A DNA stretch of 64,000 nt from Candidatus Microgenomates bacterium (GTDB lineage Bacteria; Patescibacteriota; Microgenomatia; UBA8517; JACQJR01): contig JACQJR010000001.1 of assembly GCA_016204995.1 (NCBI GenBank), positions 241,132 to 305,131 on the forward strand, in the 5' to 3' direction. Positions 24-64,000 of this stretch are shown here, in pieces. The translations under genes and the position numbers were made by a program. Within the stretch, counting starts at the first letter, position 1. Every line of letters starts with the position of its first letter. The notes beneath the pieces were generated by a model. It saw only the letters and a program-made list of their open reading frames with translations. It had not been told where the DNA came from and made no database searches.

Positions 24-1733
24 TTAAATTTTTTCTAAAATATCAAACGCTGGTTTACCATCCAGAAAATTTATTGTTTTAATTAAATGAAAGTCAGGAG
101 GATAATTAGACGGACTAGTTATTAAAATAGTTCTGCCACTTGTTGGTACTTCCCCTCCACTTTCCATCTTCCACTTTCCATCTTCTCCGCTAGGTATTTG
201 CCAATCATTTACAAAATAAAACTTATCAAAGCGATCTATCCAAAACCAATTAGACTGACCAAAACGAATTAAGTTGGGATCATTTATATAGTTGGCTGGA
301 TCCCAAGGCCAGTAAAATAAAATAAATTCATGTGGCTCGCCATATTTTTTAGTCATAATAATTTGATCATAACTATTATAATTATCTTTGATAAATCTAA
401 CGGCTTCCTTATATCCATATTGCCAAGACCAAGAATATTCTACCCGATATTTACCAGCATAGGTAGTAATGTAATTCTCAAAAAAAGCGGCTAATAAAAC
501 AATATAAAACACTATAGCAATTAATTGAAAATTCTTCTTGGTGATCCACTTCCACATGATTACCAAACCAATAGCTGCAAGAAGTTGCGGCATCGGCTGC
601 ATCACAATACTACGCAAAGCGTGCGGAGCTTCACGAGTAACGCTAGCGGCAATCGGACTGAAGAAAAGCCAAGATAAAATTAGCAAACTTTCTTTATTTT
701 TATTTTTAACTAACCAGATTAAGCCAATAATTATAAAAGCCAACTCTGTAGGATAAATTAAACCCTTACCTGGTATATTAAATTGATATTGGCTGCCACC
801 GTTAAAAAATAAAAATGAAGGTGAGAAATAGGAGAAATAATTTTGTATAAATTTTTCTCCCACAAAAGTAACCTTATTATGCAATAGCAAAGGCAAGGGT
901 GATGGTAATTTAGAGGTATTTCTTTCTTTATTAATTTGAGAGATCGCCCCCTCATCTAAAATTCCCACCCAGCCATAGCGGGCCAAGCCCACCGGATTTA
1001 GAAGCTGCCAAAACATAGGAAGGAAGAGGAGGGCAATAGGCAATAGGCAATAGGCAATAGTTTTCCTTTGCTTTTCCCACATCTCTTGAAAATAGTTTCT
1101 ATAAATAATTAATAAACTAATCATTAAAAGGGGTACGAAAATTCTGACAGAATTATAAGTCCAAACTGATAAACCAAAAAAGGTTATACCTATGAATAGA
1201 CGCCACCTATTACTCAATCCACTAACAAAAAAATAACTACCAGCTATAGTCAGAAATAGAGCTAAATTTGCTTCCACCGCAACACGGGATAAAAATAAAT
1301 CCCAAGGCTCAATCGCGACAAAAAAGGCAGATAAAATACTAATTTCTTGTTTCTTTAATAAGGTTTGTACAAGTAAATAAGTAAAGATTATTGTACCCAA
1401 ACCAGCCAAAACCGAAACTACTCTGACTGAAAATTCATTTAAACCAAAGATGGCAATAAAAGGAACAAGGCTATAAATATAAACCGGCAATTTATAGTCT
1501 CCATAGGCGCGAAAAATAGTAGGTAAAGTTACTCCCCACTCATCTTGACCTGTTTTTAAAATGGAATAAGCATTAACCCCGTGAGAAATTTCATCCCAAT
1601 TAAGAGCAGGAGGCAACTGTGTGACATTATAAAAACGCAGCAAAGCGGCTAAAATAATAATTAAAACTAAAAATTTATTTTTAATGAAGAAATCAATAAT
1701 CCTCTGCATATTTTTCCTTGCTGGGATCAACAA
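24..1733 (-). CDS. GT-C fold membrane glycosyltransferase, GT39/PMT_2 (ArnT/PMT-like) family
   Basis: 569-aa polytopic ORF; N-terminal loop 'NWDEISHGVNAYSILKTGQDEWGV' (DE-loop typical of COG1807/PMT_2); paralogous to 1693..3369, 6188..7996, 58817..60472; carries in-frame (GGCAATA)x4 at 1032-1060; internal Met at 1709 may be true start. Confidence 0.65.
   Translation of the reverse strand: MLIPARKNMQRIIDFFIKNKFLVLIIILAALLRFYNVTQLPPALNWDEISHGVNAYSILKTGQDEWGVTLPTIFRAYGDYKLPVYIYSLVPFIAIFGLNEFSVRVVSVLAGLGTIIFTYLLVQTLLKKQEISILSAFFVAIEPWDLFLSRVAVEANLALFLTIAGSYFFVSGLSNRWRLFIGITFFGLSVWTYNSVRIFVPLLMISLLIIYRNYFQEMWEKQRKTIAYCLLPIALLFLPMFWQLLNPVGLARYGWVGILDEGAISQINKERNTSKLPSPLPLLLHNKVTFVGEKFIQNYFSYFSPSFLFFNGGSQYQFNIPGKGLIYPTELAFIIIGLIWLVKNKNKESLLILSWLFFSPIAASVTREAPHALRSIVMQPMPQLLAAIGLVIMWKWITKKNFQLIAIVFYIVLLAAFFENYITTYAGKYRVEYSWSWQYGYKEAVRFIKDNYNSYDQIIMTKKYGEPHEFILFYWPWDPANYINDPNLIRFGQSNWFWIDRFDKFYFVNDWQIPSGEDGKWKMESGGEVPTSGRTILITSPSNYPPDFHLIKTINFLDGKPAFDILEKI
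1032..1060. repeat. (GGCAATA)x4 heptanucleotide tandem repeat, in-frame in CDS
   Basis: four perfect 7-bp units within 24..1733. Confidence 0.7.
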
Positions 1734-3369
1734 TTAAAACAGCAGGCTTACCATCAGGATAAATAACAGTATGCAGGGTAGCTATTTTTTCAGGAAATTC
1801 GCCTTTTTGCCCCACTAATAAAACTCCTGATAAATTCTGATCTTCTTGGTAATTAATACTACGAAATATATATTTACCAAGATGATATTCGCCTAATTGG
1901 TCTAAAAATGAACGGCCTTCTTTCTCATAACGCAGCCAGTCTGGGGATTGCTTTTGATAATCTCCCGCGTCCCACTGGTTGTAAAACGCCACATAAATAT
2001 GTGGTTCTGATAAAGACCTACTGATAATTACTTGCTTATAATCTCCCTCTATTTTTTTTACTAAATCCATCGCTTCTTTTCTGCCATACAGCATTGAGGA
2101 CGCTCCATGGATTGGCGCGTGATAAAAATAAGATTCCAAGAAAAATAAAATCCCTACCAGCCCAATAGCCCAATAGCCCAATAGCCAAAAGCGCCAGAAA
2201 GTCAACTTATTGTTTTGTCTCCACCAATTAAATAACGTAACAGCGCCAAACGCTGAAAAAATTTGTATGGCCGGCATCATAGTAGCTGCTCGGTTGGCAG
2301 CAAATCCCGGACCTTTGGTCAAGGCCGCTGGGATAGGAGCAAGCAAAACCCAAATTACGATTAATAGTATAGTTAAATCACGTTTTTTAATTACAGCCCA
2401 AATAGCAACTAAGATGAAGGGCAATTCAAATAAATAAAGTGCCCCCATTCCCGGAATCATTCCATAAGTCCACTCACCAGCCCCTTGTGTGAATAAAAAG
2501 ATGGGGGATAAGTAGGAAAAATAATTTTTAATAAATTCACTAGTAATGTAAACTAATTTATTAGAAAAAATTCGTGCTGTTATATCTGGTAAGCCTTGTT
2601 GTACTGCTTCATATCTGCGATCTGCCACCGCCCCCCATCCACCCGTAGGATTAAAAATAGCAATATCACCAGCCCGACTAGTACTACCTCCAAAAATAGA
2701 TAAAAATGATATGCTTAAAAAGAGTAAAAAGATCCCTACCGCTATTTTTACTGATAATGTCTTCTTAATTTCTTGCCGTTTCCACCACAATAACATTAAT
2801 ACAATTAATGGCGTTAACAATTTAGCTGAATGGTAGGAAAAAAGATTAAGGCCGAAAATTACCGCCGCCACCATCAGAAATTGTGGCTTTTTGATACCTT
2901 TTAAGGAGAGCCAAATACCCAAAGGTAATAAAAGTGTCGTTAAATTTGCCTCAAAAGCACCTCTGGATAAAGACATATGCCAAGGAGAAACGGCTAGCAA
3001 TAGTGCCGACAGAAGTGCCATTTTTTGCTCTTTAAATAATTCTTTTACTAATAAAAAGACTATTAATACCCCTAAAATACCTAAGATCGCATTAGGCAAC
3101 CTGACGGCAAATTCGTTTAAGCCAAAAATAGCAACAGTCGGTATGGCTAAATAGGTATAAAGCGGAGCTTTAAAATCCCCGAAAGAACGAAAAGTTAGAG
3201 GTAAGGTTTGACCCCACTGATCTTTGCCGGTTTTTAAAATAGAGTAAGCGTCGTAACCAAAAGAGGCTTCGTCAGGCGTAAAACCATTTGGATAGCTGTC
3301 AATTCGCCACAACCTCAAAAGGCTTGCTAGAACTATAATGGCCAACAAAATCCAACGTGTCTTACCCAC
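1693..3369 (-). CDS. GT-C fold membrane glycosyltransferase, GT39/PMT_2 family
   Basis: 558-aa ORF; 'FTPDEASFGYDAYSILKTGKDQWG' loop, many TM helices; carries in-frame (CCCAATAG)x3 at 2161-2186. Confidence 0.7.
   Translation of the reverse strand: MGKTRWILLAIIVLASLLRLWRIDSYPNGFTPDEASFGYDAYSILKTGKDQWGQTLPLTFRSFGDFKAPLYTYLAIPTVAIFGLNEFAVRLPNAILGILGVLIVFLLVKELFKEQKMALLSALLLAVSPWHMSLSRGAFEANLTTLLLPLGIWLSLKGIKKPQFLMVAAVIFGLNLFSYHSAKLLTPLIVLMLLWWKRQEIKKTLSVKIAVGIFLLFLSISFLSIFGGSTSRAGDIAIFNPTGGWGAVADRRYEAVQQGLPDITARIFSNKLVYITSEFIKNYFSYLSPIFLFTQGAGEWTYGMIPGMGALYLFELPFILVAIWAVIKKRDLTILLIVIWVLLAPIPAALTKGPGFAANRAATMMPAIQIFSAFGAVTLFNWWRQNNKLTFWRFWLLGYWAIGLVGILFFLESYFYHAPIHGASSMLYGRKEAMDLVKKIEGDYKQVIISRSLSEPHIYVAFYNQWDAGDYQKQSPDWLRYEKEGRSFLDQLGEYHLGKYIFRSINYQEDQNLSGVLLVGQKGEFPEKIATLHTVIYPDGKPAVLIVDPSKEKYAEDY
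2161..2186. repeat. (CCCAATAG)x3 octanucleotide tandem repeat, in-frame in CDS
   Basis: three perfect 8-bp units within 1693..3369 encoding 'WLLGYWAIGL'. Confidence 0.7.
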
Positions 3370-3386
3370 TATTAAATTGTAGCATG

Positions 3387-4934
3387 TTAATTGCGGTATA
3401 AGTAGAATCTAGAGGTGCCGTCAGGCTCAATAATATCAGCTACTTTTGTAAAAGGGCCAATTTGAGTTTTTTGGCCATCCACATCGTTAAAATGGTAAAG
3501 AATTAAGGTATTTGCTGGCAAACTTTCTAAATTAATATCGGCCGGTTCAAAATAGTAAGTTTGAACCATTAATTGAGTTTGATTATTTTTGATTGTATAG
3601 AAACGCCAATACCGATCAATAAATTCTATCCTGTTATCTAGATAAATAGCTGTAGCTCGTTTTTTTTGATTTTCGACTATCACCCGCTCCAAAGCACCCG
3701 GGATATTATATTTAAACCATTCATAGGATCTAATCCTATAATCCTTCATATAGTCATACCAAAAATAAGCAAATTGTATGAGTATGAGTATAAGTAATAG
3801 ATGGCAGCCAGCACGCAATAAGTAAGATTTATGGGAAATAAGAAATTTAATACCATAGGTGGCTAGAATTATGGCAAAAGGCAGCATTACTAAGGCCCGC
3901 GAAATACGGTAATGGTCTCCTACTAAAGCCGCCGCAATCGGAGAAGTAAAAACCCCTACAATTAATAATAAATTTATCCTTGTTCTCTCTTTAAATGCCT
4001 GATAAATACCTAAGGGTAAAAATATAACCACTGGCCAAAGAAAAACTCCACTTTTAGCAGTTGAATGAATTAAACTGACATCGCCCCTGGTAAAAAGAAA
4101 ATAGGGATCAAAATAAGCTATGAAAATAGCTATTTTATGGATAATATTTTCAGGGGACAGCAGTGAAATTACACCACTAAGGGGATTTAAGTTAGTATCA
4201 TAAAGGCGAGTATAGCGAACTTGATCTATTAAAGTATCGGGGTATTGAACAAGCCAGGGGATGATGGGTAATATAGGCAAAATAAATCCTACTATTAAAA
4301 TAAGAACTAGTTTTTTCTGTTTTTTAATTTGGGGTAAAAGAAAAATAAATGTCATTAATAAATATATAGGCATCATCACTTTTGCAGCATGGTAACTATG
4401 AATACCAATTCCTAAAACCAGACCAGCTAAAAATAACAACCATATTTTTTTCTTATCTAAATAATAAGCCATTAAAAATAGCCAGCCCAACACAAAAGGC
4501 ACAATATATAAATTATCTAGCAAAAGCCGACTTTGGATAAAATGAACCGGCGTTAAGGCCAGTAAAATAGCCGCTATCATCCCCCATTTCTCGCTGCTAA
4601 ATAGCTTTTTGGTTAAAAAATAAATCAATATCACATCTATTATTCCTACCATTACACTGGGTAAACGAATAGTTATTTCTGAAATCGGCATAAACAGCAA
4701 AAATAAAGATGCTAGATAAACTATTATTGGAGTGGCCCACATTACTCCCAAATGCCAAAAATAAAAAGGTAAAAGTCTGCCGTTTTCATCAAAGCCAGTT
4801 TTGGCAACAGAATAAGCGTTTAAGGAGAATCCTAACTCATCTTGGTTTAAATGGACTGGAGTTCTGGCAAGCAAACTACCATACAACAAAGATGACGCTA
4901 GAACCAGAAAAACCAGTATGATGATTTTCTTCAT
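3387..4934 (-). CDS. GT-C fold membrane glycosyltransferase (PMT_2/ArnT-like)
   Basis: 515-aa polytopic ORF; 'NQDELGFSLNAYSVAKTGFDENG' loop analogous to neighbours. Confidence 0.6.
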   Translation of the reverse strand: MKKIIILVFLVLASSLLYGSLLARTPVHLNQDELGFSLNAYSVAKTGFDENGRLLPFYFWHLGVMWATPIIVYLASLFLLFMPISEITIRLPSVMVGIIDVILIYFLTKKLFSSEKWGMIAAILLALTPVHFIQSRLLLDNLYIVPFVLGWLFLMAYYLDKKKIWLLFLAGLVLGIGIHSYHAAKVMMPIYLLMTFIFLLPQIKKQKKLVLILIVGFILPILPIIPWLVQYPDTLIDQVRYTRLYDTNLNPLSGVISLLSPENIIHKIAIFIAYFDPYFLFTRGDVSLIHSTAKSGVFLWPVVIFLPLGIYQAFKERTRINLLLIVGVFTSPIAAALVGDHYRISRALVMLPFAIILATYGIKFLISHKSYLLRAGCHLLLILILIQFAYFWYDYMKDYRIRSYEWFKYNIPGALERVIVENQKKRATAIYLDNRIEFIDRYWRFYTIKNNQTQLMVQTYYFEPADINLESLPANTLILYHFNDVDGQKTQIGPFTKVADIIEPDGTSRFYLYRN

Positions 4935-6184
4935 TTCTTAACAGTTTTTGAGGTTTTAAAGAAGTACCAATAAAGCCATAGAAAGATGGCTGTGGTAATT
5001 AAACCCAATATTCTTGGCAGTAAACGATCTCCAGCCGACATTAAATTAACTAACCACTCAACGCGCGGATACCACCAGAAATTATAAAGATTAAGTAAAT
5101 GAATAATAGAAATTCCAACAAGTAACGGTAATAATTTTCTGTTCCAGGCTACTAAAATTGTAAATAGAGGAAATAAGGGATAAAGATAGCGCTCATGCAT
5201 GCCAGTTAGGAAAGTAAAGGCGGCAAAAGCTATTAAAGTTGCTACCCAAAAAATATTTTTACTATCATGGTTTTTATAAACTTTATAAAGTAGAGGAACA
5301 GCTGCCAGGCCGAACAAAATCAAACCCCAATTATGATATGTTAGTGGTCCTAAAAATAATGTATCGGGCCGCTCATGAATTCCCGCAAGCGTCGCCCATA
5401 AATTAAAAGCGTTAGCGGTAATAATATGTAATTGCCATTCAAAAACCTTTGTTTGATAAAGATTAACTAACCAGGAAAATGGTTCTCCCTTGGAGAAAGG
5501 TAGAGTTAGACCGCCAACAATTAATGCTGCCAGCAGAATTGATTTTAACCAATCCTTTATTTGATATTTCTGCTTAATTGCCACCATGGCCAGAATTGGT
5601 ACCATAATAACTAGTGAAACTTTGATAAATAAAGAAGTAAAGATGGCAATCATGCTCCATTTTAACTTTCTCTCAAGTAGTAGCATTATTGATAATAAAG
5701 AAAAAAAGTTGACGGTAGCATCTGTCTGTCCCCAAATCGCCGAGTTATACCAAGTCACTGGATTAAACAGAAATAATGAGGCTCCCCATAAACCTAACTT
5801 TCCTTTTAAGAATTTAAATATTAAATAAGCCATGCCTAAATCAGCCAAAATAGCCGGCAATTTAAGAAGGGCTTGGTAAAGCCGCTCTTCAAAAAACAAC
5901 ATAATGGCAGAGGGAAAAACAGGCAGATTAACATTAACCCACCAGAAGAAATTAAAAATTAGCTCAAACAACTTTCTAACAAGAGCAAAAATAATAATTG
6001 TCCCGGGGGGTTGATTAGGCCAGGAAAAACTCCAGACATTTTGGGAGTAAAACTTCTCCGGCCCGTATTGCCAAAATCTAATCCCCCAATCTACATGGTT
6101 ATTTAAATCCGGATGCCAGACAATAAAAGCAAAAACTACTCTTAATAGAAAAGCTATTAATAATACCTTCCAAAGATGTTGCAT
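4931..6184 (-). CDS. polytopic membrane protein, DUF2029/GT87-like putative mannosyltransferase
   Basis: 417-aa ORF, N-terminal 'HPDLNNHVDWGIRFW', hydrophobic throughout; paralogue of 31048..32298 ('HPDLLGHSF'). Confidence 0.45.
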   Translation of the reverse strand: MQHLWKVLLIAFLLRVVFAFIVWHPDLNNHVDWGIRFWQYGPEKFYSQNVWSFSWPNQPPGTIIIFALVRKLFELIFNFFWWVNVNLPVFPSAIMLFFEERLYQALLKLPAILADLGMAYLIFKFLKGKLGLWGASLFLFNPVTWYNSAIWGQTDATVNFFSLLSIMLLLERKLKWSMIAIFTSLFIKVSLVIMVPILAMVAIKQKYQIKDWLKSILLAALIVGGLTLPFSKGEPFSWLVNLYQTKVFEWQLHIITANAFNLWATLAGIHERPDTLFLGPLTYHNWGLILFGLAAVPLLYKVYKNHDSKNIFWVATLIAFAAFTFLTGMHERYLYPLFPLFTILVAWNRKLLPLLVGISIIHLLNLYNFWWYPRVEWLVNLMSAGDRLLPRILGLITTAIFLWLYWYFFKTSKTVKK

Positions 6185-6187
6185 AAT

Positions 6188-7996
6188 TTATTTTTGAGAA
6201 TTAAGGGTCAACAGGTAAAATGCTGGCTCGCCGGAAGGATAAGCAATGGCCCGGATAAGTTTAAGATTTTTCGGCAGTGTCCCCGGCTCTTGAATAATAT
6301 TGACATTAAATTCCTTAGCATTGGCTAGATAAAGGGTTTTCTCATCTAAAAATTCGGATAAGGAGTAAATTCCGCTTTTAAGAGGGGGGGAGGCAAAATA
6401 GAATTTATCCAGATGAGAAACTAATCCATAACCCGGTAAATCGGTTTTGGGGAAAGGAAAATTTTCCTGCCATTTTTGTGGAGGGTACTGGTAGGCACCA
6501 GCAAAGAAAATCCACGGAGGCTCACCTGCAGTTGAAATAATAATTTTGTCAAAATTATTTTCCTCCGCTTTAATTGTTTTAACAGCCTCTTGCCAGCCAA
6601 AATGCCACCATCTCTCACTTTCCCACGGATAGTGCACCCAAAAACTGTGTTGGTAAAGTATAAATGTTAAAACATATACTCCACCTATAGCCAAGGCTAC
6701 AGTTTTTTTCCACCTAGCAGATACATTAAGCCAAATCCCATAAACACCAAAGGCAATTAAAAATATTAAAGTAGGTAGCAGGAAAAATAGGCGGGTGGCA
6801 TGCATTCCACCATCACGAGTTAGAACAGCTGGAATAGGGGCTGCTAATATCCAAAATACAATTAAGGTTTTCATCTTGCCATTAACAGGAGAAACTATAA
6901 AGAAGGCGAGACCTGCCAGCAGGAAAATTAAATCAATCCTATAAAGCTGACCCATTTCGTTTAAGGAATGCCTTAAATTTAAATCTCCCTGAATAAAAAG
7001 AAATTGAGTGGAAAAAACTTGCAAATAGTTACGGACAAACATATTCCACCAGTAAAGCAATTTATTATGAAATACCCTATCAACTAAACTAGGTTGAGCG
7101 CCAAACTTAACATCGGGGTCAGCCACTTTAGCATCACGTAACCTATCCCAGCCAATTTGAGGCACTACAGTCGGATCAGTAAAAATAGACAAATAAGAGA
7201 AGCGGGCAGTACCACCGCCAAAGACCGTGCTATAAGCAATAGGACTACCCACTAAGAATAAAGCAACCACTGACCACAGTAGCCATTTTTTCCCTGCTTT
7301 AAATATTTCCTTCCGGTAAATCAATACCAACGCCGTCAGAAACAAAGGCATAAAGAGCTTAGCCGTACTATAAACCCACGGAGTTAGAGCAAAACATGCA
7401 GCAGACCACGGCAGCCATTTTCCATTTTTCAGTCCACGTAAGAAAAACCAAAGGCCGGCTAGAAAAAATGTCAACATTTGTGTCACTTCAAACCCCGCCC
7501 GGGAGTATTGAATATGCCAAGGAGAAATGGCTAGGAAAAGGGCGGCAAGGATTGGCAAAGACGGGTGGCGGGGGCGGAGGGAGTCCCGACGAGTGCCCGC
7601 AGCGTTCAGCGAGGACATCGGGCGGGACGAGCCCCCGGCAGGACCCGTCGTCCCCTTTAATAATTCCGATATTAATGAATAAAAAATCCAAACTCCTAAA
7701 ATTCCAAAAATGGCGGCTGGAAGTCTTACCCCCAAAGGAGAAATGCCAAAAAGAGCCACCGTTGGTACGGCACTATATAAATAAAGGGGAGTTCTCCATT
7801 CGGCAAGGGACTGAAAATGGAGTGGCATAAAGTTACCAGAATAATCACGACCTGTTTTCAAAATTGAATATGCTTGATAGCCGAGATCCAACTCATCTCC
7901 AAACAAGGAAACCGGTACCTGATCCAGCCGCCATAATCTTAAAAATGAAGCAATTAACAAAATTCCAACGAGCAATAATGGTATCTTCTTTAGCAT
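6188..7996 (-). CDS. GT-C fold membrane glycosyltransferase, GT39/PMT_2 family, carrying in-frame GC-rich element
   Basis: 602-aa ORF; 'FGDELDLGYQAYSILKTGRDYSG' loop; cytoplasmic loop interrupted by ~34-aa 'GTTGPAGGSSRPMSSLNAAGTRRDSLRPRHPSLP' absent from paralogue 1693..3369. Confidence 0.7.
   Translation of the reverse strand: MLKKIPLLLVGILLIASFLRLWRLDQVPVSLFGDELDLGYQAYSILKTGRDYSGNFMPLHFQSLAEWRTPLYLYSAVPTVALFGISPLGVRLPAAIFGILGVWIFYSLISELLKGTTGPAGGSSRPMSSLNAAGTRRDSLRPRHPSLPILAALFLAISPWHIQYSRAGFEVTQMLTFFLAGLWFFLRGLKNGKWLPWSAACFALTPWVYSTAKLFMPLFLTALVLIYRKEIFKAGKKWLLWSVVALFLVGSPIAYSTVFGGGTARFSYLSIFTDPTVVPQIGWDRLRDAKVADPDVKFGAQPSLVDRVFHNKLLYWWNMFVRNYLQVFSTQFLFIQGDLNLRHSLNEMGQLYRIDLIFLLAGLAFFIVSPVNGKMKTLIVFWILAAPIPAVLTRDGGMHATRLFFLLPTLIFLIAFGVYGIWLNVSARWKKTVALAIGGVYVLTFILYQHSFWVHYPWESERWWHFGWQEAVKTIKAEENNFDKIIISTAGEPPWIFFAGAYQYPPQKWQENFPFPKTDLPGYGLVSHLDKFYFASPPLKSGIYSLSEFLDEKTLYLANAKEFNVNIIQEPGTLPKNLKLIRAIAYPSGEPAFYLLTLNSQK
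7558..7652. repeat. GC-rich palindromic element, copy A (in-frame within GT39 gene)
   Basis: GACGGGT at 7560-7566 and ACCCGTC at 7643-7649 (reverse complements); internal hairpins (GGGACGA..TCGTCCC); GC-rich in AT-rich CDS; shares GACGGGTG...GCGG.GGGAG.CCC.ACG...GGCAGGACCCGTCG with copy B. Confidence 0.6.
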
Positions 7997-16562: not shown

Positions 16563-16573
16563 AAATTTAAAAT

Positions 16574-27855: not shown

Positions 27856-27859
27856 GAAT

Positions 27860-48711: not shown

Positions 48712-48957
48712 TTACAAAAGCAGACTTAGGATCAGGGCTGATCCTAAAAGGGCAATGGCAGTATACTCTATCACAACTTCCCAGTAAAGATCGCTATGTA
48801 TCCAATGATGAACTATGCCCCAACTGATGTAAGCCAAAGAACTAGCTACGACCAGGGCAATTTGAAAGGGGCGATCAAAAGAAAATAATTTGAATCCCGC
48901 TATCACAATAATCAAAATTCCTAATAAAACTAGGTAATGAGAAAAATGCCGTCTCAT
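48712..48957 (-). CDS. hypothetical small membrane protein (2 TM)
   Basis: 81 aa, two hydrophobic helices. Confidence 0.3.
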   Translation of the reverse strand: MRRHFSHYLVLLGILIIVIAGFKLFSFDRPFQIALVVASSLAYISWGIVHHWIHSDLYWEVVIEYTAIALLGSALILSLLL

Positions 48958-57499: not shown

Positions 57500-58117
57500 T
57501 TATGGTGTGGCGGTAGGAGTGGGCGTGGGGGAAGGAGTGGGCGAAGCAGTCGGACTAACGCTTGGCTTAGGTGTGGAGCTGGCTGTCGGCTTGGACGTAG
57601 CGCCCTTCCTTAAACCAGTAACAATGACTACCTCAAAACTGCCGGTGGCAGTAGTCACTCTATTCACAGTCGCGTAATTATCTTCTAAAATAGTAATGAT
57701 CTCATCCTGAAAATCCGCCGGCACAGTTTCGCTAAAAGAAACTGTAGTTTCTTTGTTATCTTTGGTATCCGCATTACCTGTTTCCACATTGGTATAACCC
57801 GCTGCAGTTAATTTATCTTTAGCTTTGCCTGCTTCGCCGGCGACACCAGTTCCATTTAATACCTGGATTTTAACATCTTCTTTGGCCATAGCCGGAGTGG
57901 GACTCGGAGTTACTTCGGAGATCGGCGTGGGGCTGGGAGTAGCTTCTATGGTACCACCAGTCTTACCCAGTAAAAAATAACCTCCAGCGACTAAACCTAT
58001 TAATATTAAAATCACTATAATAGGTAAAATGGGGAATTTCTTTTTTGATTCCCAGCTAGAAAAGGTTTGGGCTTGGACAGGAGTTTGACTAGAAGATTCT
58101 TTTGTCTCTTCTTCCAT
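57500..58117 (-). CDS. LytR_C (LytR cell-envelope-associated C-terminal) domain protein with PT-rich tails
   Basis: 205 aa; TM anchor, 'DVKIQVLNGTGVAGEAGKAKDKLTAAGYTNVETGNA...TTVSF' LytR_C signature; flanking Pro/Thr/Ser linkers. Confidence 0.55.
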   Translation of the reverse strand: MEEETKESSSQTPVQAQTFSSWESKKKFPILPIIVILILIGLVAGGYFLLGKTGGTIEATPSPTPISEVTPSPTPAMAKEDVKIQVLNGTGVAGEAGKAKDKLTAAGYTNVETGNADTKDNKETTVSFSETVPADFQDEIITILEDNYATVNRVTTATGSFEVVIVTGLRKGATSKPTASSTPKPSVSPTASPTPSPTPTPTATP

Positions 58118-58816: not shown

Positions 58817-60472
58817 CTAAATCGTTGACCACAAGGTGTAAACTATCCCGCTGTCTGGTCGCTTGATTTGATTAAGAATTTTTACCATCCTCCTCAAATT
58901 CAGTTCGTAATCACAACCTTCTCCATCCACTACCAACATCTTAGGTGACTCCGGAGCAGCCAAAACATCCTTGCTGGGACAACGTTGACCGGTAAATTCA
59001 AAATTCTCTGTTGTCCAAACCCCTTTTTCCCGCTTAATGGCATCTCTGTTAAAAGTTGCCGGATCGCGACCGGTGAAGAAAGCAATCCAGGGGTAGGGAT
59101 CATCAGGAATATCAGTCAGAACAATCTTGTCGTAATTATTTTGCACTTTATTTAATTCTTGAGCCAGTTCCTTGGCGCCGATATTTCTATATAATGACAC
59201 ATTGAATTTAGCATGCGTGTAATATTGATGAAGATAGAAGATAAAATTGGCCACCAGTAAAAAAGAGGTTAGATAGAGAGTCGGTTTTTTAAACCTTTTT
59301 AAATTAAAAATAAATTCCAACCCATAAGCCCCAATAATCGCGATGAAGGGAATCATAAATAAGGCCCGATGTAAATTTGGAGCATCCTCTGTAGTTAAAG
59401 CCGCCGGAATGGGGGCAACCAATAATAAAAGTAGCGGCAGAAAATTTTGTTTGCCGCGCACAATAGCCGCCAGACCTATAAGTAACAGCAATGCCTCAAT
59501 ATAAGTTAATTGGCCTACGCCCACTGTCAAGTAGCGCAGAGGTTTACCTGTTGATCCAATTAAGAAATCAGCACTGAAATATCTGGTATACTCGTTAATA
59601 AATCTTCTGGCATAAACTGACAATTTATTATGAAAAAGACGAGCGATAAAAACTTTATTTGGCCCTTCCTCAAAAGGCATCTTTGATAACTCATAATGCA
59701 CATCAAGATCATTAAAAATTGACACTTGGGAAAATCTGCTTCGGGCTTGGGAATCTAAAGAAAAAAACAGAGTAGTCAAAGACACTGCTATCAATACTCC
59801 TACTGCCACCTTTTTTATCTTAATCCCCAAACTTCTCCAATAGTAAAAAACGACCATGCCGATAAATAGCGGCGCTAATAATCTAATTGAGTGATAGAAG
59901 AAATAACTTAATATAAGAAAGAACACTCCCCAGATTAAAAATTTTCGCGTGATCGTATTTAAAAACCTAATCAATAAATAAATTCCCAAAAGGGCCAAAA
60001 ACATGGATATCACCACTTCACTGGTAGCGCGACTAACGCTGATATGCCAGGGATTAATAGCTAGTAGCAACGACGCTATGATGGCCACCCTTTTTTTATT
60101 CGTTAACTCGCGTGTTAAAAAATATAAAACTAAGATCGTCAATGCTCCAAACAAGGCGCTTGGCAATCTGACAGCAAATTCACTCTTTCCGAAAAGGGCC
60201 AGCGAGGGAATAATGGTGTAGAAAATTCCGGTGGGGCGATAATCACCAAAACTGTTGTAATAAAGGGCCAACTTATTACCCCTATCGTCTAGCCCTGTCT
60301 TTAAGATGGAATAAGCATTCCAGCCGGCTTTTACCTCATCGTTATGGAAACCAACCGGAAAATTATTCAATTGAAAAAGACGTAAAAATAATGCTAGAAG
60401 GAAAATTAAAACTAGGGGCCTAGTAAAAAATGACAATTTAATCACCACTGTTCCATTGTACAATATGAACAA
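58817..60472 (-). CDS. GT-C fold membrane glycosyltransferase, GT39/PMT_2 family
   Basis: 551 aa; 'FHNDEVKAGWNAYSILKTGLDDRGN'; ORF-track start is TTG sharing a base with the divergent gene; internal TTG ~60436 preceded by GGTGA is an alternative. Confidence 0.7.
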   Translation of the reverse strand: MFILYNGTVVIKLSFFTRPLVLIFLLALFLRLFQLNNFPVGFHNDEVKAGWNAYSILKTGLDDRGNKLALYYNSFGDYRPTGIFYTIIPSLALFGKSEFAVRLPSALFGALTILVLYFLTRELTNKKRVAIIASLLLAINPWHISVSRATSEVVISMFLALLGIYLLIRFLNTITRKFLIWGVFFLILSYFFYHSIRLLAPLFIGMVVFYYWRSLGIKIKKVAVGVLIAVSLTTLFFSLDSQARSRFSQVSIFNDLDVHYELSKMPFEEGPNKVFIARLFHNKLSVYARRFINEYTRYFSADFLIGSTGKPLRYLTVGVGQLTYIEALLLLIGLAAIVRGKQNFLPLLLLLVAPIPAALTTEDAPNLHRALFMIPFIAIIGAYGLEFIFNLKRFKKPTLYLTSFLLVANFIFYLHQYYTHAKFNVSLYRNIGAKELAQELNKVQNNYDKIVLTDIPDDPYPWIAFFTGRDPATFNRDAIKREKGVWTTENFEFTGQRCPSKDVLAAPESPKMLVVDGEGCDYELNLRRMVKILNQIKRPDSGIVYTLWSTI

Positions 60473-62103
60473 TGAAAAAACATATCCCTGCCTTAATTAT
60501 TATTCTGCTATTTGCCTTGGTCGGCATGAAAGCTCTTTTTCATCCCGGTCTTTTTACCGCCCATGATATCTGGCATCAAGTAGCCAGACTCTATCATTAT
60601 CACCAAGCTGTCCAAGACGGGCAATTTCCACCATATTGGATTGCTAACCTTGCTAATGGTTTTGGTTATCCGCTATTTTTCTTCTCCTATCATTTACCTT
60701 GGATCCTAGCTCTACCTTTGCTGGGTATAGGACTGTCTATACCCCTAACCATTAAAACTCTTTTTATAATTTCTTATTTCTTTTCAGGAATTGTGATGTA
60801 CTTTTTTTCTTTTGACCTATTTAAAAACAAATGGGCTGCTTTAACCTCTACCATTCTTTATCTGTGGGCCCCTTTCCACTTTGTCACTATTCTGGTAAGT
60901 GCTGCCATGGGCACTGCTTTTGTTTTTACTCTCTTCCCTCTACTTTTATGGGGATTATACAAAATTACCCACTATAAATCTCCCTTAGGCACTATTTTTA
61001 CCAGTCTAGGTTTAGCAGGCATTATCTTATCGCATCTTATGACAACTATTTTCCTTATACCACTACTTAGCTTATGGATCTTCTGGTTATTAAAAGATCA
61101 AAAGAATAAGAAAAATTTTCTGAAAAAAATTATTTACGCTGGCTTACTGGGCATAGGCCTTGCTGCATTCTATTTCTTACCAGCTATTTTTTATAGCCGT
61201 TTAACTCAAGTATCAAGTGGAGCTTTTGCCTCACTTTACGAAAAACAATTCGTTAATCTAACTCAATTGATTTACTCAAAATGGGGCTATGGCATCGCCG
61301 ACACAGCCAAAGAAATGAACATTTCTTTTCAAATTGGTATTGCTCAATGGATTGGCGTAATTTTGACCTTTGTATTAATTATTATGAAGAAACAGCGGAA
61401 AAATAATTTTTTGGGTATCACACTTATGACAACTTTTCTTATTAGCATCTTTGCTATGACTGATATTTCTAGATCAGTTTGGGTAATAATCTCTAAGATC
61501 ATCACCCTTGATTACCCCACCACTTTTTTGTTACCAGCTACTATTACTGGTTCTCTTTTGGCTGGATTTGTTGTCAGTCAGGTAAAAACTATTTCTCCTT
61601 TCGCATCAGTTCTTTTTATAATCATAGCCATTTATACTAATAGAAATCATCTGCGAGTTAATATGTATACCAATATTCCTGTTTCACTTTATGTGGCATC
61701 TGAAACTACTACCAATTCCTATCATGAATATCTACCGAAAACTGCAGATTTAGGACTTTTCAGCGAGAAAATAATTAGAGTATTGCCTCAGAATTCAGCG
61801 ATAGAGAATTTTAAACAAAACAGTAAAGAACTTTCCCTAAAAATTAGTCTTACAAGAGAAGACAATATCACCTTGGGGCATTTTTCTTTTCCAGGTCTAA
61901 ATCTCTATGTAGATGAAATTAAAACTATTTATGATAGTGAAGAACGTGGTCGGATAAAATTTCCTTTAACAGCAGGTAACTATTTCATTCAATTAAAATT
62001 TGAAGATACACCTTTGATAAAAATCTCCAAATTAGTTACTATTGGATCACTATTATATTTATTATTCCTGGCTTTTAAAAATATTTATGGCAAAAAAAGT
62101 TAA
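60472..62103 (+). CDS. PTPS-related (PF10131-like) polytopic membrane protein, putative GT-C
   Basis: 543 aa; 'FTAHDIWHQVARLYHYHQAVQDGQFPPYW' HDxxxHxxR loop; paralogue of 29307..31058. Confidence 0.5.
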   Translation: MKKHIPALIIILLFALVGMKALFHPGLFTAHDIWHQVARLYHYHQAVQDGQFPPYWIANLANGFGYPLFFFSYHLPWILALPLLGIGLSIPLTIKTLFIISYFFSGIVMYFFSFDLFKNKWAALTSTILYLWAPFHFVTILVSAAMGTAFVFTLFPLLLWGLYKITHYKSPLGTIFTSLGLAGIILSHLMTTIFLIPLLSLWIFWLLKDQKNKKNFLKKIIYAGLLGIGLAAFYFLPAIFYSRLTQVSSGAFASLYEKQFVNLTQLIYSKWGYGIADTAKEMNISFQIGIAQWIGVILTFVLIIMKKQRKNNFLGITLMTTFLISIFAMTDISRSVWVIISKIITLDYPTTFLLPATITGSLLAGFVVSQVKTISPFASVLFIIIAIYTNRNHLRVNMYTNIPVSLYVASETTTNSYHEYLPKTADLGLFSEKIIRVLPQNSAIENFKQNSKELSLKISLTREDNITLGHFSFPGLNLYVDEIKTIYDSEERGRIKFPLTAGNYFIQLKFEDTPLIKISKLVTIGSLLYLLFLAFKNIYGKKS

Positions 62104-62821
62104 AGCAAGAGTGATCGCTGTGATGCCTGCCTATAATGCTGCTAAAACCATCAAAAAAACTTTAGATGATATACCCAAAGGCGTAGTTGATAAAGTTGTA
62201 GTGGTAGATGATGGATCTGCCGATAAAACTGTTCTGGTTGCTAAAAAGTTAGGGTTAGAAGTATTCACCCATCCACAAAATAGAGGATATGGTGGCAACC
62301 AAAAAACTTGCTATACCATAGCACTTTCAGAAGGGGCTGATATTGTAGTGATGATTCACCCCGATTATCAATATGATAGCAGTTTAACCGGAGAATTAAT
62401 CAGGCCGATTTTACAAAATAGATTTGATGTTATGTTGGGATCAAGAATTCGCACCCGAGAAGAAGTATTAAAAGGCGGCATGCCTTTCTATAAATATCTC
62501 AGTAACAGATTTTTGACATTTTTGGAAAATTTATTTTTAGGACAAAATTTATCAGAGTATCATACTGGATTTCGCGCCTATACCAAAGAAATTTTAAAAA
62601 AGGTGCCCTTTCATAAATATTCTGATGATTTTGTTTTTGATCAGCAAATTTTGTTTGGGGCCATTGCTGCGGACGCTAGAATCGGCGAAATACCGGTGCC
62701 GGTTCGCTACTTTCCTGAAGCTTCTTCTATCAATCTGCAAAGATCTGCTATTTACGGTTTATCTATCTTAAAAGACTTATTACTTTACAGTATTATAGGT
62801 AAGGAAAAATTCTTAAAATAA
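62087..62821 (+). CDS. GT2 family glycosyltransferase (DPM1/ArnC-like), soluble
   Basis: start at ATG 62087 ('MAKKVKARVIAVMPAYNAAKTI'); 'VVVVDDGSADKT', 'IHPDYQYD'; upstream TTG extension overlaps previous gene. Confidence 0.75.
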   Translation: MAKKVKARVIAVMPAYNAAKTIKKTLDDIPKGVVDKVVVVDDGSADKTVLVAKKLGLEVFTHPQNRGYGGNQKTCYTIALSEGADIVVMIHPDYQYDSSLTGELIRPILQNRFDVMLGSRIRTREEVLKGGMPFYKYLSNRFLTFLENLFLGQNLSEYHTGFRAYTKEILKKVPFHKYSDDFVFDQQILFGAIAADARIGEIPVPVRYFPEASSINLQRSAIYGLSILKDLLLYSIIGKEKFLK

Positions 62822-64000
62822 TGTTTCTTTGGAAAAAATTTCCCTTAATCGTATGGCTGATTTTTATTATAGGTTTACTGGTACGCCTACTCTATTTTCC
62901 CCAAAATGTTTATTTTAGTTTTGATCAAGCCCGTGATGCTTTTACCGCGCAACAAATTTTAAAAGGCGATTTTAAAATCATCGGCCCGCCTTCAGCGGCC
63001 AGTGATAAATTATTTCCCGGACCATTAATTTATTATATTTACGCGCCCATCTATGGAATATTTGGTAAAAGTCCGGAAAACATTTCTCTGTTCTTACGTT
63101 TATTTAACGCCTTAGGCATTCTCTTAGTTTTTAAAATCGGTCAAATAATTTTCAATCGTAAGGTAGGAATCTTATCAGCCCTGCTTTTTGCTTTTTCTTA
63201 CGAACAAAGCCAATATGCTTTGTTTATTAGCCATCAACCCTTAGCAGTTATACCAGTCTTGCTTTTTTATTTAGGGTTAAGTCTATTAATTTTTGCTAAA
63301 AAATCTCAGGGTCTAATACTTACTATGTTAGGATGGGGAGTCGCTATTCAATTTCATTATGTCTATATTCTACTGCTACCAATTCTATTAATGATTTTAT
63401 TAATTTTTCGCCGGTCAATTTTTCCCATCCTTAAATTGAAAACTATCTTAATTTGCTTAGGCATCTTCTTGTTAACTACTTCTACCTATTTTATAACTGA
63501 ATTTAAATTCCATTTTAGACTTTTATCAGGAATTTGGGAAAAATTAGCTGCTACTTCAAGTTTGTCTGATAAAACTCATCTTTTTTACTCCCAAGAAACA
63601 CTATTCATAATTAACCGGTTTTTACATGATACTTTTTTAGCAAATTATAATTACACTCCAATTCTATGGTTTATCCTTGCAGGAATTTTAATTATCCTGC
63701 TAAAAAATCAAAAAATAAGACTAACAATAGTTTTTTTATTACTGTGGTTTATGGGTGGTTTAATACCATACTTTCTTTCTGGAACTCCCAGTTATTATTA
63801 TGCCGCCGCTGGCTCCGTTAGTTTATTAATTTTTGCGACTTTTATACTGGAAAAATTTTTAGCAAAACGAATTATTTTTCAAATTTTGCTTATCTTATTA
63901 ATAATTTTTAATAACATTTCTTTAATTAGACAATTCAACCCCCATGGTCTTAATCCGGATATGGTTATTCAACCAGAAATGACCACAAATTATGAAAAAG
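62821..64000 (+). CDS. GT-C fold membrane glycosyltransferase ('FDQARDA' family), 3'-partial at window end
   Basis: ATG overlaps upstream stop (TAATG); 'FSFDQARDAFTAQQILKGDFKIIGPPSAASDKLFPGPLIYYIYAP'; open to end of window. Confidence 0.5.
   Translation, partial: MFLWKKFPLIVWLIFIIGLLVRLLYFPQNVYFSFDQARDAFTAQQILKGDFKIIGPPSAASDKLFPGPLIYYIYAPIYGIFGKSPENISLFLRLFNALGILLVFKIGQIIFNRKVGILSALLFAFSYEQSQYALFISHQPLAVIPVLLFYLGLSLLIFAKKSQGLILTMLGWGVAIQFHYVYILLLPILLMILLIFRRSIFPILKLKTILICLGIFLLTTSTYFITEFKFHFRLLSGIWEKLAATSSLSDKTHLFYSQETLFIINRFLHDTFLANYNYTPILWFILAGILIILLKNQKIRLTIVFLLLWFMGGLIPYFLSGTPSYYYAAAGSVSLLIFATFILEKFLAKRIIFQILLILLIIFNNISLIRQFNPHGLNPDMVIQPEMTTNYEK

Follow-up and report, generated by a model that had tools for sequence, protein, structure and literature searches.

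Enzymes of the ArnC/GtrB/DPMS type produce polyprenyl-phosphate-sugar donors, and among the described multi-component systems GtrA/GtrB/GtrX modifies the O-antigen while CsbB/GtcA/YfhO glycosylates teichoic acids. The PMT_2, YfhO and GT87 families of GT-C-fold transferases also modify lipids, teichoic acids and polysaccharides, as in ArnT, YfhO, GtrX and PimE. The only known pathways with many GT-Cs are those of mycobacterial and corynebacterial envelopes, and the mycobacterial GT-C genes are dispersed in a genome larger than 4 Mb. We know of no lipid A synthesis in CPR bacteria.

Here, we analysed a stretch of 64,000 nt (the window) on a 609,565-bp contig of a Candidatus Microgenomates MAG, which represents an uncultured ultra-small CPR bacterium. 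The window probably contains most of a cell-envelope glycan assembly supercluster that is conserved in the Microgenomatia (CPR).

GT-C genes in the window

We counted 20 GT-C-fold genes from 7-8 sub-families, which agrees with the original prediction of about 20 paralogues from at least five sub-families. The assignments were supported by the Pfam gathering score for 14 genes, by the predicted fold for two genes without Pfam matches and by profile comparison for four. The gathering score of PMT_2 and/or PMT was reached by 24, 1693, 3387, 6188, 8027, 11713, 27860, 32288, 33895, 35991 and 58817 (genes are named by their start coordinates), and the other Pfam passes were YfhO in 13250, GT2 plus PMT_2 in the fusion gene 39783 and PMT_2 in 62821. 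Genes 19312, 41980, 29307, 60472, 4931 and 31048 were below the Pfam threshold and were established by other means. Sub-families were grouped with BLAST and hhalign, the members being as follows:

24-1733 (-): sub-family A (PMT-like, DE motif), motif NWDE; PMT 34.8 and PMT_2 33.2 bits, both above cut-off; 32% identical to 1693, reciprocal best matches in the window (BLAST)
1693-3369 (-): sub-family A; PMT_2 61.9 bits; 14,449 representative homologues, the top ones at 45-52% identity; best paralogue 32%
3387-4934 (-): sub-family A, divergent; PMT_2 51.6 bits; hhalign 98-100% to other A members
4931-6184 (-): sub-family E (GT87/PIG-M-like); no Pfam match alone; hhalign 96% to 31048
6188-7996 (-): sub-family A with GC-rich palindromic insert; PMT_2 28.9 bits
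8027-9430 (-): sub-family B (FDQARDA-like); PMT_2 27.4 bits; hhalign 99-100% to B members
11713-13242 (-): sub-family B, FDQARDA at residue 29; PMT_2 33.9 bits; orthologues at 66% and 55% identity
13250-15583 (-): sole YfhO family member; YfhO 63.9 bits against a cut-off of 28.5; L083 orthologue at 54% identity
19312-21045 (-): orphan Pfam-less family, N-terminal HDGVWH (HDxxxH) motif; AF2 pLDDT 82.7; STT3/AglB-like predicted fold
27860-29317 (-): sub-family C (divergent PMT_2); PMT_2 32.5 bits; orthologues at 46-56% identity
29307-31058 (-): sub-family D (PTPS-related/YfhO-like); YfhO and PTPS_related both sub-threshold; hhalign 100% to 60472 and 90-96% to PMT_2 members; orthologues in 31 loci, 55-56% identity
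31048-32298 (-): sub-family E; GT87 E=0.003, PIG-M E=0.009
32288-33898 (-): sub-family C; PMT_2 43.8 bits; orthologues in 63 loci
33895-35238 (-): sub-family C; PMT_2 73.5 bits
35991-37511 (-): sub-family B, YDQGRDA; PMT_2 29.3 bits; orthologues in 43 loci
39783-41978 (-): fusion of an ArnC-like GT2 (residues 1-250) with a PMT_2 GT-C domain, GDEGRD motif; C-terminal half in sub-family B
41980-43161 (+): orphan Pfam-less family; PMT_2 just 17.4 bits; AF2 pLDDT 87.4; orthologues in 64 loci
58817-60472 (-): sub-family A; PMT_2 50.0, PMT 41.1 bits
60472-62103 (+): sub-family D; PTPS_related 23.6 against a cut-off of 26.4; hhalign 100% to 29307
62821-64000 (+): sub-family B, FDQARDA, ORF running past the window end; PMT_2 43.1 bits; 37% identical to 11713

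The GT-C genes occupy 31,700 of the 64,000 bases (49.5%) and 61% of the segment 24-44361, while all glycan-related genes combined cover 71%. Each of the 20 proteins is polytopic, with some 7-17 hydrophobic segments, and carries an acidic motif directly behind TM1; this first-loop motif is invariant in three family alignments (A1, D264/D268; A4, H20-D21; A5, N51-D53-G54). All 19 complete GT-C ORFs are uninterrupted and as long as their orthologues, so the paralogues are not the pseudogenes that would have undermined the prediction. In sub-family E, a joint profile of 4931 and 31048 matched the PDB entry "GPI mannosyltransferase 1" (E=1.3e-6), and GT87 was matched by 4 of 7 family members.

For the two Pfam-less families, the top 18 PDB fold matches of the 19312 model are all GT-C proteins (STT3, DPY19, AglB, PglB, ArnT, AftA), with Foldseek E values of 1e-7 to 5e-5 for STT3, DPY19, AglB and PglB, and the top 35 Foldseek matches of the 41980 model are likewise all GT-C-fold proteins. 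Gene 19312 has at least 1,477 homologues and no Pfam or NCBIfam match, and the WWDYG motif is absent from all 29 of 29 members of its family. It adjoins the flippase gene in the window and in loci L083 and L084. We propose an OST-like role for 19312 from its predicted fold and gene adjacency.

Donor synthases, flippase and neighbouring genes

The remaining glycan genes include eight free GT2s (9409, 10191, 16669, 17490, 18398, 35251, 43153 and 62042) in addition to the fused one, a GT4, a Wzx-like flippase and nucleotide-sugar genes:

9409-10194 and 10191-11066 (-): two GT2 genes; Glycos_transf_2 105.5 and 84.9 bits
11063-11716 (-): SAM-dependent methyltransferase; Methyltransf_11 90.2 bits; kept in Blackburnbacteria locus L084
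15540-16562 (-): GT4 (GT-B fold) glycosyltransferase; Glycos_transf_1 65.9 bits
16669-17493 (with GC-rich insert), 17490-18401 and 18398-19294 (-): three GT2 genes; order identical in L083 and L084
20990-22564 (-): MOP-family (Wzx-like) flippase; Polysacc_synt_3 175.7 bits; NCBIfam MOP flippase 138 bits, below the equivalog cut-off
35251-35994 (-): GT2 of polyprenyl-phosphate-sugar synthase type (GtrB/DPMS/ArnC-like); top PDB matches GtrB sll0501, DPMS and ArnC
43153-44361 (-): DPMS-like polyprenyl-phosphate hexose synthase with GtrA-type C-terminal TM domain; GT2 99.7, GtrA_DPMS_TM 44.7 bits
46142-47104 and 47111-48103 (-): two rmlD-like genes; Pfam passed, below NCBIfam equivalog cut-offs
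48100-48696 (-): rmlC-like gene; Pfam passed, below the NCBIfam equivalog cut-off
48954-49784: CAP-domain protein between the nucleotide-sugar genes
49797-50780 (-): GalE; TIGR01179 263.5 against a cut-off of 262.3
62042-62821 (+): GT2 of polyprenyl-phosphate-sugar synthase type, with AglJ and PpgS matches

This inventory agrees with the prediction of about ten GT2s, a GT4, wzx, galE and rml genes, the last being one rmlC-like and two rmlD-like genes at the Pfam level. The window lacks rmlA and rmlB as well as an initiating phosphoglycosyl transferase of the WecA/WbaP type, and neither a Wzy nor a ligase could be recognised in it. Four GT2s resemble the ArnC/GtrB/DPMS type, namely 35251, 43153, 62042 and the N-terminal half of 39783. 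Residues 3-249 of the fusion match ArnC in the PDB (E=1e-18) and are 30% identical to 35251 in the GT2 domain; 43153 matches Pyrococcus DPMS (5mlz) over its full length (E=1.5e-35). The GT2s 9409 and 10191 cluster with 17490, outside the lipid-phosphate-sugar synthase type.

Gene 37483-39786 (-) encodes an MFS-like membrane domain fused to a spermidine-synthase-like domain (Spermine_synth 66.8 bits; NF037959 109 against 40). It was ruled out as a GT-C (hhalign 0% to all GT-C families) and is specific to its own lineage at this position, its counterpart being absent from the other loci. The ORFs 51490-51969 and 57500-58117 contain long Thr/Pro/Ser-rich tracts beside TM anchors and, judged by sequence, are possible nearby glycan acceptors. 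A defence/R-M islet lies outside the glycan system, and the interval is missing between the orthologous genes of L083:

22564-27860 (no strand assigned): inserted defence/R-M islet
23544-24638: SIR2-like gene
25430-25948: small PD-(D/E)XK-like gene
25945-26811: type II N6/N4 MTase
27184-27855: Cas4-like PDDEXK_1 gene

Selfish in-frame repeats had been predicted to be concentrated in the GT-C genes. Inside ORFs, we indeed found a palindromic, GC-rich element of roughly 90 nt. The window has three copies, of which GT-C genes host two and a GT2 gene the third:

7554-7656 (-): copy 1, within GT-C gene 6188; 75% GC; CM R1 54.5 bits
17114-17220 (-): copy 2, within GT2 gene 16669; 72% GC; CM R1 61.4 bits
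30508-30556: remnant, within GT-C gene 29307; CM match

The insert gives 6188 an extra 29 residues relative to four paralogues. The element is real but not specific to GT-C genes, and the predicted concentration was not supported: in other metagenomes its hosts are gatB, topA, tyrS, ychF, P-type ATPase and similar genes, with only 1 of 22 host ORFs matching a GT-C profile, and short tandem repeat arrays are not enriched in GT-C genes, which contain 8 of 21 where 49.5% would be expected (p=0.38). The palindromic element resembles the Rickettsia palindromic elements (RPE), reportedly described by Ogata and colleagues in 2000, in being a short palindrome within intact ORFs, including housekeeping genes, that can lie in both orientations and contributes a stretch of peptide to the host protein. 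It differs in belonging to an unrelated sequence family, with termini CGACGGGTCCTGCC...CACCCGTCG, and in being very GC-rich in AT-rich genomes, its hosts being low-GC metagenomic contigs that are apparently CPR-like.

Conservation across the Microgenomatia

The GT-C block forms a synteny unit that is conserved in the class Microgenomatia. It is anchored by the fusion gene 39783, which has 2,651 homologues and orthologues at 43-65% identity. A core consisting of 41980 and the divergently transcribed 39783, followed by 35991, (8027), 32288, 29307(n) and 19312, recurs in 52 species. Gene order in a close relative and in a Blackburnbacteria genome is collinear with the window from about 37,000 to 9,500, and the succession of flippase, 19312, three GT2s, GT4 and YfhO is kept in L083 and L084. 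The synteny comparison covered the part of the window between its left (24-7996) and right (58817-64000) arms.

Twelve GT-C genes have positional orthologues in other genera with 54-67% identity and conserved order, whereas the best paralogue pairs within the window are only 23-37% identical, with a maximum of 37% (BLAST). The duplications are therefore ancient, and the low paralogue identity combined with orthologues in conserved order identifies the array as an ancient, class-wide conserved locus. The cluster is old and common to the whole class and so did not arise by recent local expansion, contrary to the "extreme local expansion" of the original prediction. The suggested comparison with relatives gave a class-typical density: counted up to 10 kb from the fusion gene (per 22 kb), there are 7 GT-C genes in the window and a median of 6 in 52 other species.

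A recent lineage-specific tandem expansion under diversifying selection, such as phage/host pressure, that produced many new specificities is thus very improbable and already largely refuted. The sub-family A genes 24, 1693, 3387 and 6188 are indeed adjacent, with 24 and 1693 as mutual best matches, but 1693 has homologues elsewhere that are more similar to it than its paralogues. Relatives have between 1 and 4 PTPS-related copies, some Daviesbacteria 3-4 in tandem, yet even these tandem copies are only 28-43% identical among themselves. The fetched loci matched sub-family A, 4931 and 8027/60472/62821 at only 23-36% identity, so these parts could be more variable. Tandem duplication did occur, as seen in the adjacent A genes and the Daviesbacteria rows, but it is ancient, and the prediction that it generated many of the specificities is not supported.

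Proposed pathway and known systems

The supercluster reading builds on what was shown directly, namely the family and fold of the proteins, the intactness of the genes, their conservation and their order; we infer the donor chemistry, topology, order of action and acceptor. The soluble GT2 and GT4 enzymes (9409, 10191, 15540, 16669, 17490 and 18398) would assemble a lipid-linked oligosaccharide at the cytoplasmic membrane face, which would be exported by the flippase 20990 and transferred or polymerised by the adjacent OST-like 19312. In parallel, 43153, 35251, 62042 and the N-terminal half of 39783 may make polyprenyl-phosphate monosaccharide donors, to be spent outside the membrane by about 18 further GT-Cs (PMT_2 sub-families A-C, PTPS-related, YfhO, GT87-like and the 41980 family) that would elongate or decorate a glycopolymer of the wall, Ser/Thr/Pro-rich surface proteins, or both. 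The array would have originated by ancient duplication and divergence before the class radiation, with single genes later gained or lost per lineage. The four ArnC/GtrB/DPMS-like GT2s, including the one joined to a PMT_2 domain, fit an extracytoplasmic, GT-C-driven glycan assembly, which makes the prediction of an elaborate system of this kind reasonable.

We consider it unlikely that the locus is dedicated to general Pmt/Pgf-like protein O-glycosylation, with most of the GT-Cs acting on secreted and surface proteins rich in Ser/Thr (pilins, S-layer, lipoproteins) rather than on a wall polymer. Seven genes with the DE motif reach the PMT (PF02366) gathering score and Thr/Pro/Ser-rich membrane-anchored proteins are encoded close by, but the PMT_2, YfhO and GT87 families are not confined to protein substrates, and the Wzx-like flippase, five GT2s and GT4 suggest a polymer or oligosaccharide repeat unit. 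The donor-synthase GT2s score highest on PgfS, AglJ and dolichyl-phosphate hexose transferase models and the C-terminus of the YfhO protein 13250 weakly matches PgfM1 and PgfM2, although all these NCBIfam matches are far below equivalog cut-offs. Even less probable is lipoglycan or glycolipid assembly as for mycobacterial LM/LAM, with GT-Cs extending a membrane-anchored glycolipid via polyprenyl-phosphate sugars. It would accord with the many GT-Cs per pathway of those envelopes, the GT87/PIG-M-like members and the fold matches to PimE (41980 model, TM 0.51) and AftA (both models). However, matches to STT3, AglB and PglB outscore those to PimE or Emb, and neither a PimA/PimB-type GT4 set nor inositol-related genes were seen in the window.

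The supercluster shares features with several known systems. As in the ArnC/ArnT pathway for lipid A aminoarabinose, an ArnC-like domain is paired with a PMT_2/ArnT-like domain, and the models of both 19312 and 41980 have fold matches to ArnT; there, the two are separate proteins rather than one fusion, and no ArnA, ArnB or ArnD genes are present in the window. The combination of GT2 synthase, GtrA-type module and GT-C, along with a YfhO member, recalls the three-component systems (GtrA/GtrB/GtrX, CsbB/GtcA/YfhO, GacI/GacL). Instead of one component each, however, the window holds about 20 GT-Cs and four synthases, with one synthase fused to a GT-C and another to a GtrA-type domain. The oligosaccharyltransferases STT3, AglB and PglB are the best fold matches of 19312, including the C-terminal globular domain (3vu0, TM 0.56), and 19312 resembles them in the acidic motif after TM1 and the neighbouring flippase, but it lacks a PF02516 match and WWDYG, and the TM-scores are modest, at about 0.5. 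DE-motif PMT-domain proteins, a PgfS-like GT2 and a YfhO-type GT-C are shared with actinobacterial Pmt and Streptococcus mutans Pgf, from which the window differs by scores far below all equivalog cut-offs, a much larger number of paralogues and the added flippase and GT2/GT4 set. The mycobacterial and corynebacterial set (EmbA-C, AftA-D, MptA-C, PimE and Pmt, with Ppm1) is similar in its many GT-Cs from several families, its GT87-like members and its dependence on polyprenyl-phosphate sugars and extracytoplasmic action, both predicted here. Emb- or Aft-type C-terminal carbohydrate-binding domains were not detected in the window, and unlike the scattered mycobacterial genes, the GT-C genes are packed into some 45-64 kb of a contig that is itself just 610 kb long.

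GT-C transferases in the window

The window has a G+C content of about 37%, with nearly all genes on the minus strand. Pfam was scanned against the 54 ORFs of at least 150 aa and the ORF truncated at the 3' end. Among 20 proteins that we assign to the GT-C transferases, 14 reached the Pfam gathering score: 11 as PMT_2/PMT, one as YfhO, one as a fusion of a GT2 domain to PMT_2 (39783-41978, hereafter the fusion) and one as a truncated PMT_2 (62821). The other six are polytopic proteins below threshold in Pfam, which were assigned by predicted fold or by profile-profile comparison. The PMT_2 family includes lipid- and glycan-modifying enzymes such as ArnT. The PF02366 PMT domain, together with a DE motif in the first loop, was found in 24, 1693, 3387, 32288, 33895, 58817 (genes are named by their start coordinates) and the fusion; the other PMT_2 genes matched PF13231 only. 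The YfhO-like protein (13250-15583) scored 63.9 bits against PF09586 in two matched stretches, with a gathering score of 28.5.

All 20 proteins contain about 7-17 hydrophobic segments by hydropathy, in keeping with polytopic membrane proteins of 8-13 transmembrane helices. Acidic motifs (DE, D[QE]xRD, HD, HPD, NxDG) follow the first transmembrane segment within the first ~70 residues, or at residue 264 in the fusion; these first-loop motifs are invariant in three family alignments and would lie on the extracytoplasmic side. In profile-profile comparisons with hhalign, the two PTPS-related proteins (29307-31058 and 60472-62103) matched each other at 100%, and 29307 matched PMT_2 members at 90-96% and YfhO at 78%. 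The two GT87/PIG-M-like proteins (4931-6184 and 31048-32298) matched each other at 96%; their joint profile retrieved GPI mannosyltransferase 1 from the PDB (E=1.3e-6), and GT87 was matched by four of seven family members. No hhalign link to the PMT_2 group was seen for this pair, for 41980 or for 19312. Two negative controls, the Wzx-like flippase and the product of 37483, gave 0-1% to every family. With 14 proteins recognised by Pfam, six resolved otherwise and clean controls, the original prediction of about 20 GT-C paralogues holds at a count of 20. Of the window, 49.5% is taken up by GT-C genes and 71% by all glycan-related genes together. That half of 64 kb in a very small genome is spent on such a locus points to a strongly selected surface glycan or glycoprotein coat.

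One further membrane protein was considered as a GT-C enzyme and rejected. The gene 37483-39786, between the fusion and 35991, encodes a 767-aa protein in which an MFS-like membrane part is fused to a spermidine-synthase-like part; a counterpart at this position was absent from all other fetched loci (80 related loci).

Two of the families have no Pfam or NCBIfam model. For 19312-21045, which matched nothing in either database, at least 1,477 homologues were found. An AlphaFold model built with 29 homologues (pLDDT 82.7) is a helical bundle whose top 18 fold matches are all STT3, DPY19, AglB, PglB, ArnT or AftA. Foldseek matches to STT3-type folds had E=1e-7 to 5e-5 and TM scores of about 0.45-0.53, and the C-terminal domain matched 3vu0, so that the predicted structure combines an STT3-type fold with a C-terminal periplasmic domain. 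The WWD[YWF]G motif is absent from 19312 and from 29 of 29 family members, and 19312 does not match PF02516. Since this motif and any Pfam or NCBIfam match are missing, we do not file 19312 as an oligosaccharyltransferase (OST), and a true OST is ruled out by the missing WWDYG. The model of 41980-43161 (pLDDT 87.4) is likewise a helical bundle, with only GT-C folds in its top 35 ranks (STT3, AglB, PglB, ArnT, PIGU, ALG9/ALG12, AftA, Pmt4, DPY19, PimE); a sequence search of the PDB with the profile of this family gave nothing meaningful.

Decay of the paralogues into pseudogenes, which would have undone the count, is ruled out by ORFs that are all intact, by lengths like those of the orthologues and by the invariant motifs. 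An assembly artefact is ruled out by two independent Logan assemblies, which show no difference from the window over 20.4 kb and 4.2 kb, and the presence of the same proteins on the NCBI MAG contig of 609,565 bp also counts against it.

Conservation and age of the locus

A scan of GTDB with the alignment of the fusion protein yielded 491 relatives, of which the best 80 loci were taken with 10-kb flanks; profiles of the window families were used to score them. The homologues carried the names Daviesbacteria, Woesebacteria, Amesbacteria, Blackburnbacteria and Microgenomates group. The 52 full-length loci, each from a different species, contained a median of 6 GT-C genes (range 2-9) that made up 43% of the DNA, in the recurrent order 41980(-) / 39783 - 35991 - (8027) - 32288 - 29307 (1-4 copies) - 19312. 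As the window's own interval of ±10 kb around the fusion contains 7 GT-C genes, this genome is typical for its class, and the extreme local expansion proposed originally was not borne out by the comparison of locus size across relatives.

Many of the GTDB records are titled 'uncultured Gammaproteobacteria/Pseudomonadales bacterium ... binchicken', and one 'Clostridia bacterium'; their gene order and G+C content are of the Microgenomatia type, and because of this gene order we treated the titles as unreliable, apparent mislabels. In several Daviesbacteria-type loci (L003, L005, L010, L012 and others), the 2.2-kb fusion gene is matched by tblastn over a stretch of about 2.8 kb, which suggests an insertion or an extra domain.

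The comparison was extended by two loci anchored on orthologues of 19312, one from a close relative (L083, GCA_964442455.1, 67% identity) and one from Blackburnbacteria (L084, GCA_016183565.1). Both are collinear with the window from ~37,000 to ~9,500, and the order flippase, 19312, three GT2s, GT4, YfhO is common to all three; in L084 it goes on with a methyltransferase, a GT2, a PMT_2, another GT2 and a further PMT_2. The genes 31048 and 33895 are absent from L083, as is the following islet:

22564-27860: defence/restriction-modification islet, inserted into the glycan cluster

The islet encodes a SIR2-like protein, a small PD-(D/E)XK-like ORF that overlaps a type II N6/N4 DNA methyltransferase, and a Cas4-like PDDEXK_1 nuclease. 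In L084, a 61% identical methyltransferase, a PDDEXK_1 protein and HicA are found one gene away. A tRNA scan of the window found none.

For 12 of the window GT-C proteins, the positional orthologues are 54-67% identical, compared with 23-37% for the best paralogue, and no pair of paralogues in the window exceeds 37% identity by BLAST. The positions of sub-family A (24, 1693, 3387, 6188 and 58817) lie beyond the fetched loci, and for this sub-family an exhaustive search was made with 1693 instead; among 14,449 representative homologues the best were 45-52% identical over the full length, versus 32% for the best paralogue.

These values bear on the proposal that many specificities arose by tandem duplication. 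Tandem duplication has clearly taken place: members of sub-family A lie adjacent to one another, and in some Daviesbacteria three or four PTPS-related genes stand side by side. A recent local expansion was not supported, however, since the paralogues are at most 37% identical whereas the orthologues are 54-67% identical, and even the tandem PTPS-related copies in Daviesbacteria are only 28-43% identical. Because orthologues are closer than paralogues and the tandem copies are this divergent, we consider the array to be ancient and conserved, with genes gained and lost in particular lineages. Being ancient and orthologous across the class, it is better read as core envelope biosynthesis than as a fast-evolving contingency locus.

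Palindromic elements and tandem repeats

Two GC-rich islands interrupt genes of the window, and further copies were located with a covariance model.

7554-7656: GC-rich island (72-75% GC in both islands) inside the intact GT-C gene 6188
17114-17220: GC-rich island inside the intact GT2 gene 16669
30508-30556: remnant of a third copy, in the GT-C gene 29307 (covariance model)
5440-5563 and 14020-14187 of L083: copies at sites orthologous to those of the window (covariance model)

The two islands have common termini, CGACGGGTCCTGCC...CACCCGTC, and form long hairpins (z = -3.6 and -4.0). Protein alignments with paralogues and orthologues identify them as insertions that keep the ORF open. They belong to a family of GC-rich palindromes of ~77-105 nt with termini CGACGGGTCCTGCC...CACCCGTCG, which, as repeated palindromes that interrupt an alignment and leave the reading frame open, are comparable to the Rickettsia palindromic elements. 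The covariance model found copies in the window and L083 only, with none in 72 other Microgenomatia loci, and an exact search for the terminus in 82 fetched loci found none. The occurrence of copies at orthologous sites in two genomes, in hosts that are 59% (29307) and 71% (16669) identical, suggests that the element is long persistent.

The exact terminal pattern was also found in 95 metagenome contigs, about 40 of which have low-GC flanks. In an alignment of 33 low-GC copies, 93.9% of cells were paired, and covariation was 0.391 compared with 0.106 in shuffled alignments and at most 0.12 when slid. Of the 95 metagenomic copies, 60 lie within open frames of at least 150 aa, in both orientations. 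Among the host proteins are GatB, topoisomerase I, an M1 peptidase, a GT4, a P-type ATPase, a methyltransferase, YchF and TyrRS, and a GT-C profile was matched by only one of 22 host ORFs. With hosts that are diverse and partly housekeeping, the element is a general in-ORF repeat that is not tied to GT-C genes. No Rfam match was obtained in the window or on the element, and a literature search for palindromic in-frame elements in CPR returned nothing relevant. A plain repeat search for a dispersed repeat recovered only conserved coding motifs of sub-family A.

Perfect tandem repeats of at least three copies are nearly all heptamers (five arrays, plus one octamer); no such arrays with units of 5, 6 or 9-12 nt occur in the window.

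1032-1060, 18225-18248, 18294-18325, 44972-44998, 45179-45202, and also 2159-2186: perfect arrays
10901-10937, 16571-16607, 51233-51285: imperfect arrays

The arrays are located in a GT-C gene, in GT2 genes, in trmD and in intergenic stretches, and GT-C genes are not enriched in short tandem repeats (8 of 21 arrays, p=0.38). Of the claim that selfish in-frame repeats are concentrated in the GT-C genes, the repeats are borne out and the concentration is not: an in-ORF palindromic element exists, but neither this element (1 of 22 hosts) nor the tandem repeats are linked to GT-C genes in particular. A role of the heptamers as phase-variation switches is unsupported: one array is in trmD, a housekeeping gene, and no length variants were seen in two other assemblies. 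Both arrays of the GT2 gene 17490-18401 are absent from the orthologues in L083 and L084. The paralogous GT2 genes 10191 and 17490 carry near-identical arrays of the GTGCAAA type at the same protein position.

Predicted donor synthases, proposed pathway and known systems

The N-terminal 250 residues of the fusion matched ArnC (E=1e-18), 35251 matched GtrB, DPMS and ArnC, and 62042 matched AglJ and PpgS. The match of 43153 to the Pyrococcus DPMS was full-length (E=1.5e-35), and its C-terminal end is a GtrA_DPMS_TM domain (44.7 bits), the only occurrence of this domain; a free GtrA gene was not found. In BLAST comparisons these four GT2s group together, separate from the other five. Judged by sequence, the four are of the polyprenyl-phosphate-sugar synthase class, and the ones whose top PDB matches are GtrB, DPMS and ArnC would supply the GtrB-like GT2 of a three-component (Gtr-type) system. 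That the cluster encodes these four synthases is indirect evidence for lipid-phosphate-linked sugars as donors of the GT-C enzymes. The accessory genes named in the original prediction are present, with reservations: gene 49797 is GalE, while the one rmlC-like and two rmlD-like genes all fall below the NCBIfam equivalog cut-offs. RmlA and RmlB were not found in the window, which accordingly lacks the complete four-enzyme dTDP-L-rhamnose pathway (RmlABCD).

We propose that, as in known three-component and Wzx-dependent pathways, lipid-linked sugars are made inside, flipped, and then used outside by the GT-C enzymes. Beside the four donor synthases, the pathway would be rounded out by the Wzx-like flippase, the GT4 and the other GT2s. 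The product of 19312 may act on the flipped oligosaccharide, as suggested by its OST-like predicted fold and by its position next to the flippase gene in the window, L083 and L084. Thr/Pro/Ser-rich anchored proteins (51490-51969 and 57500-58117) are candidate substrates for O-glycosylation, and a wall polymer or lipoglycan is an equally possible acceptor.

On the minus strand, the ORFs 51767-52408 and 51490-51969 share ~200 nt, read in different frames, within a GC-rich tandem repeat that codes for Thr/Pro (51827-51890). They resemble two parts of a single secreted protein, a candidate O-glycosylation substrate with a TP-rich linker and a C-terminal transmembrane anchor, that has been split by a frameshift, either genuine or introduced by the assembly.

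The ultra-small CPR/Patescibacteria, most of them uncultured, are believed to live attached to other cells, and to our knowledge the chemistry of their envelope is essentially unknown. A possible, if somewhat doubtful, reading of the locus as a whole is that in Microgenomatia about 5% of a ~0.6-1 Mb genome goes into a conserved machinery for building a complex surface glycan almost wholly outside the membrane, by a logic like that of the mycobacterial envelope, with ~20 GT-C enzymes and with 19312 as a new OST-like en-bloc transferase or polymerase that cooperates with the Wzx-like flippase. If so, the glycan would be an envelope component that defines Microgenomatia and has yet to be described, and could be central to host attachment. 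The locus offers concrete targets in the ArnC-like/PMT_2 fusion, the two unannotated GT-C families and the pairing of the flippase with 19312. A search for GT-C, PMT_2 or glycosyltransferase expansions in CPR or Microgenomates found nothing relevant in the searchable literature, which is no proof of novelty.

The enzymology is of known kinds, namely those of the Gtr-type three-component systems, ArnC/ArnT, Pmt/Pgf and the mycobacterial GT-C battery. Unlike in those systems, 20 GT-C genes, which amount to 31.7 kb or ~5% of a 610-kb contig, are here compacted in a locus that is conserved class-wide, has an ArnC-like/PMT_2 fusion as its anchor gene and includes two large families without a Pfam or NCBIfam model.
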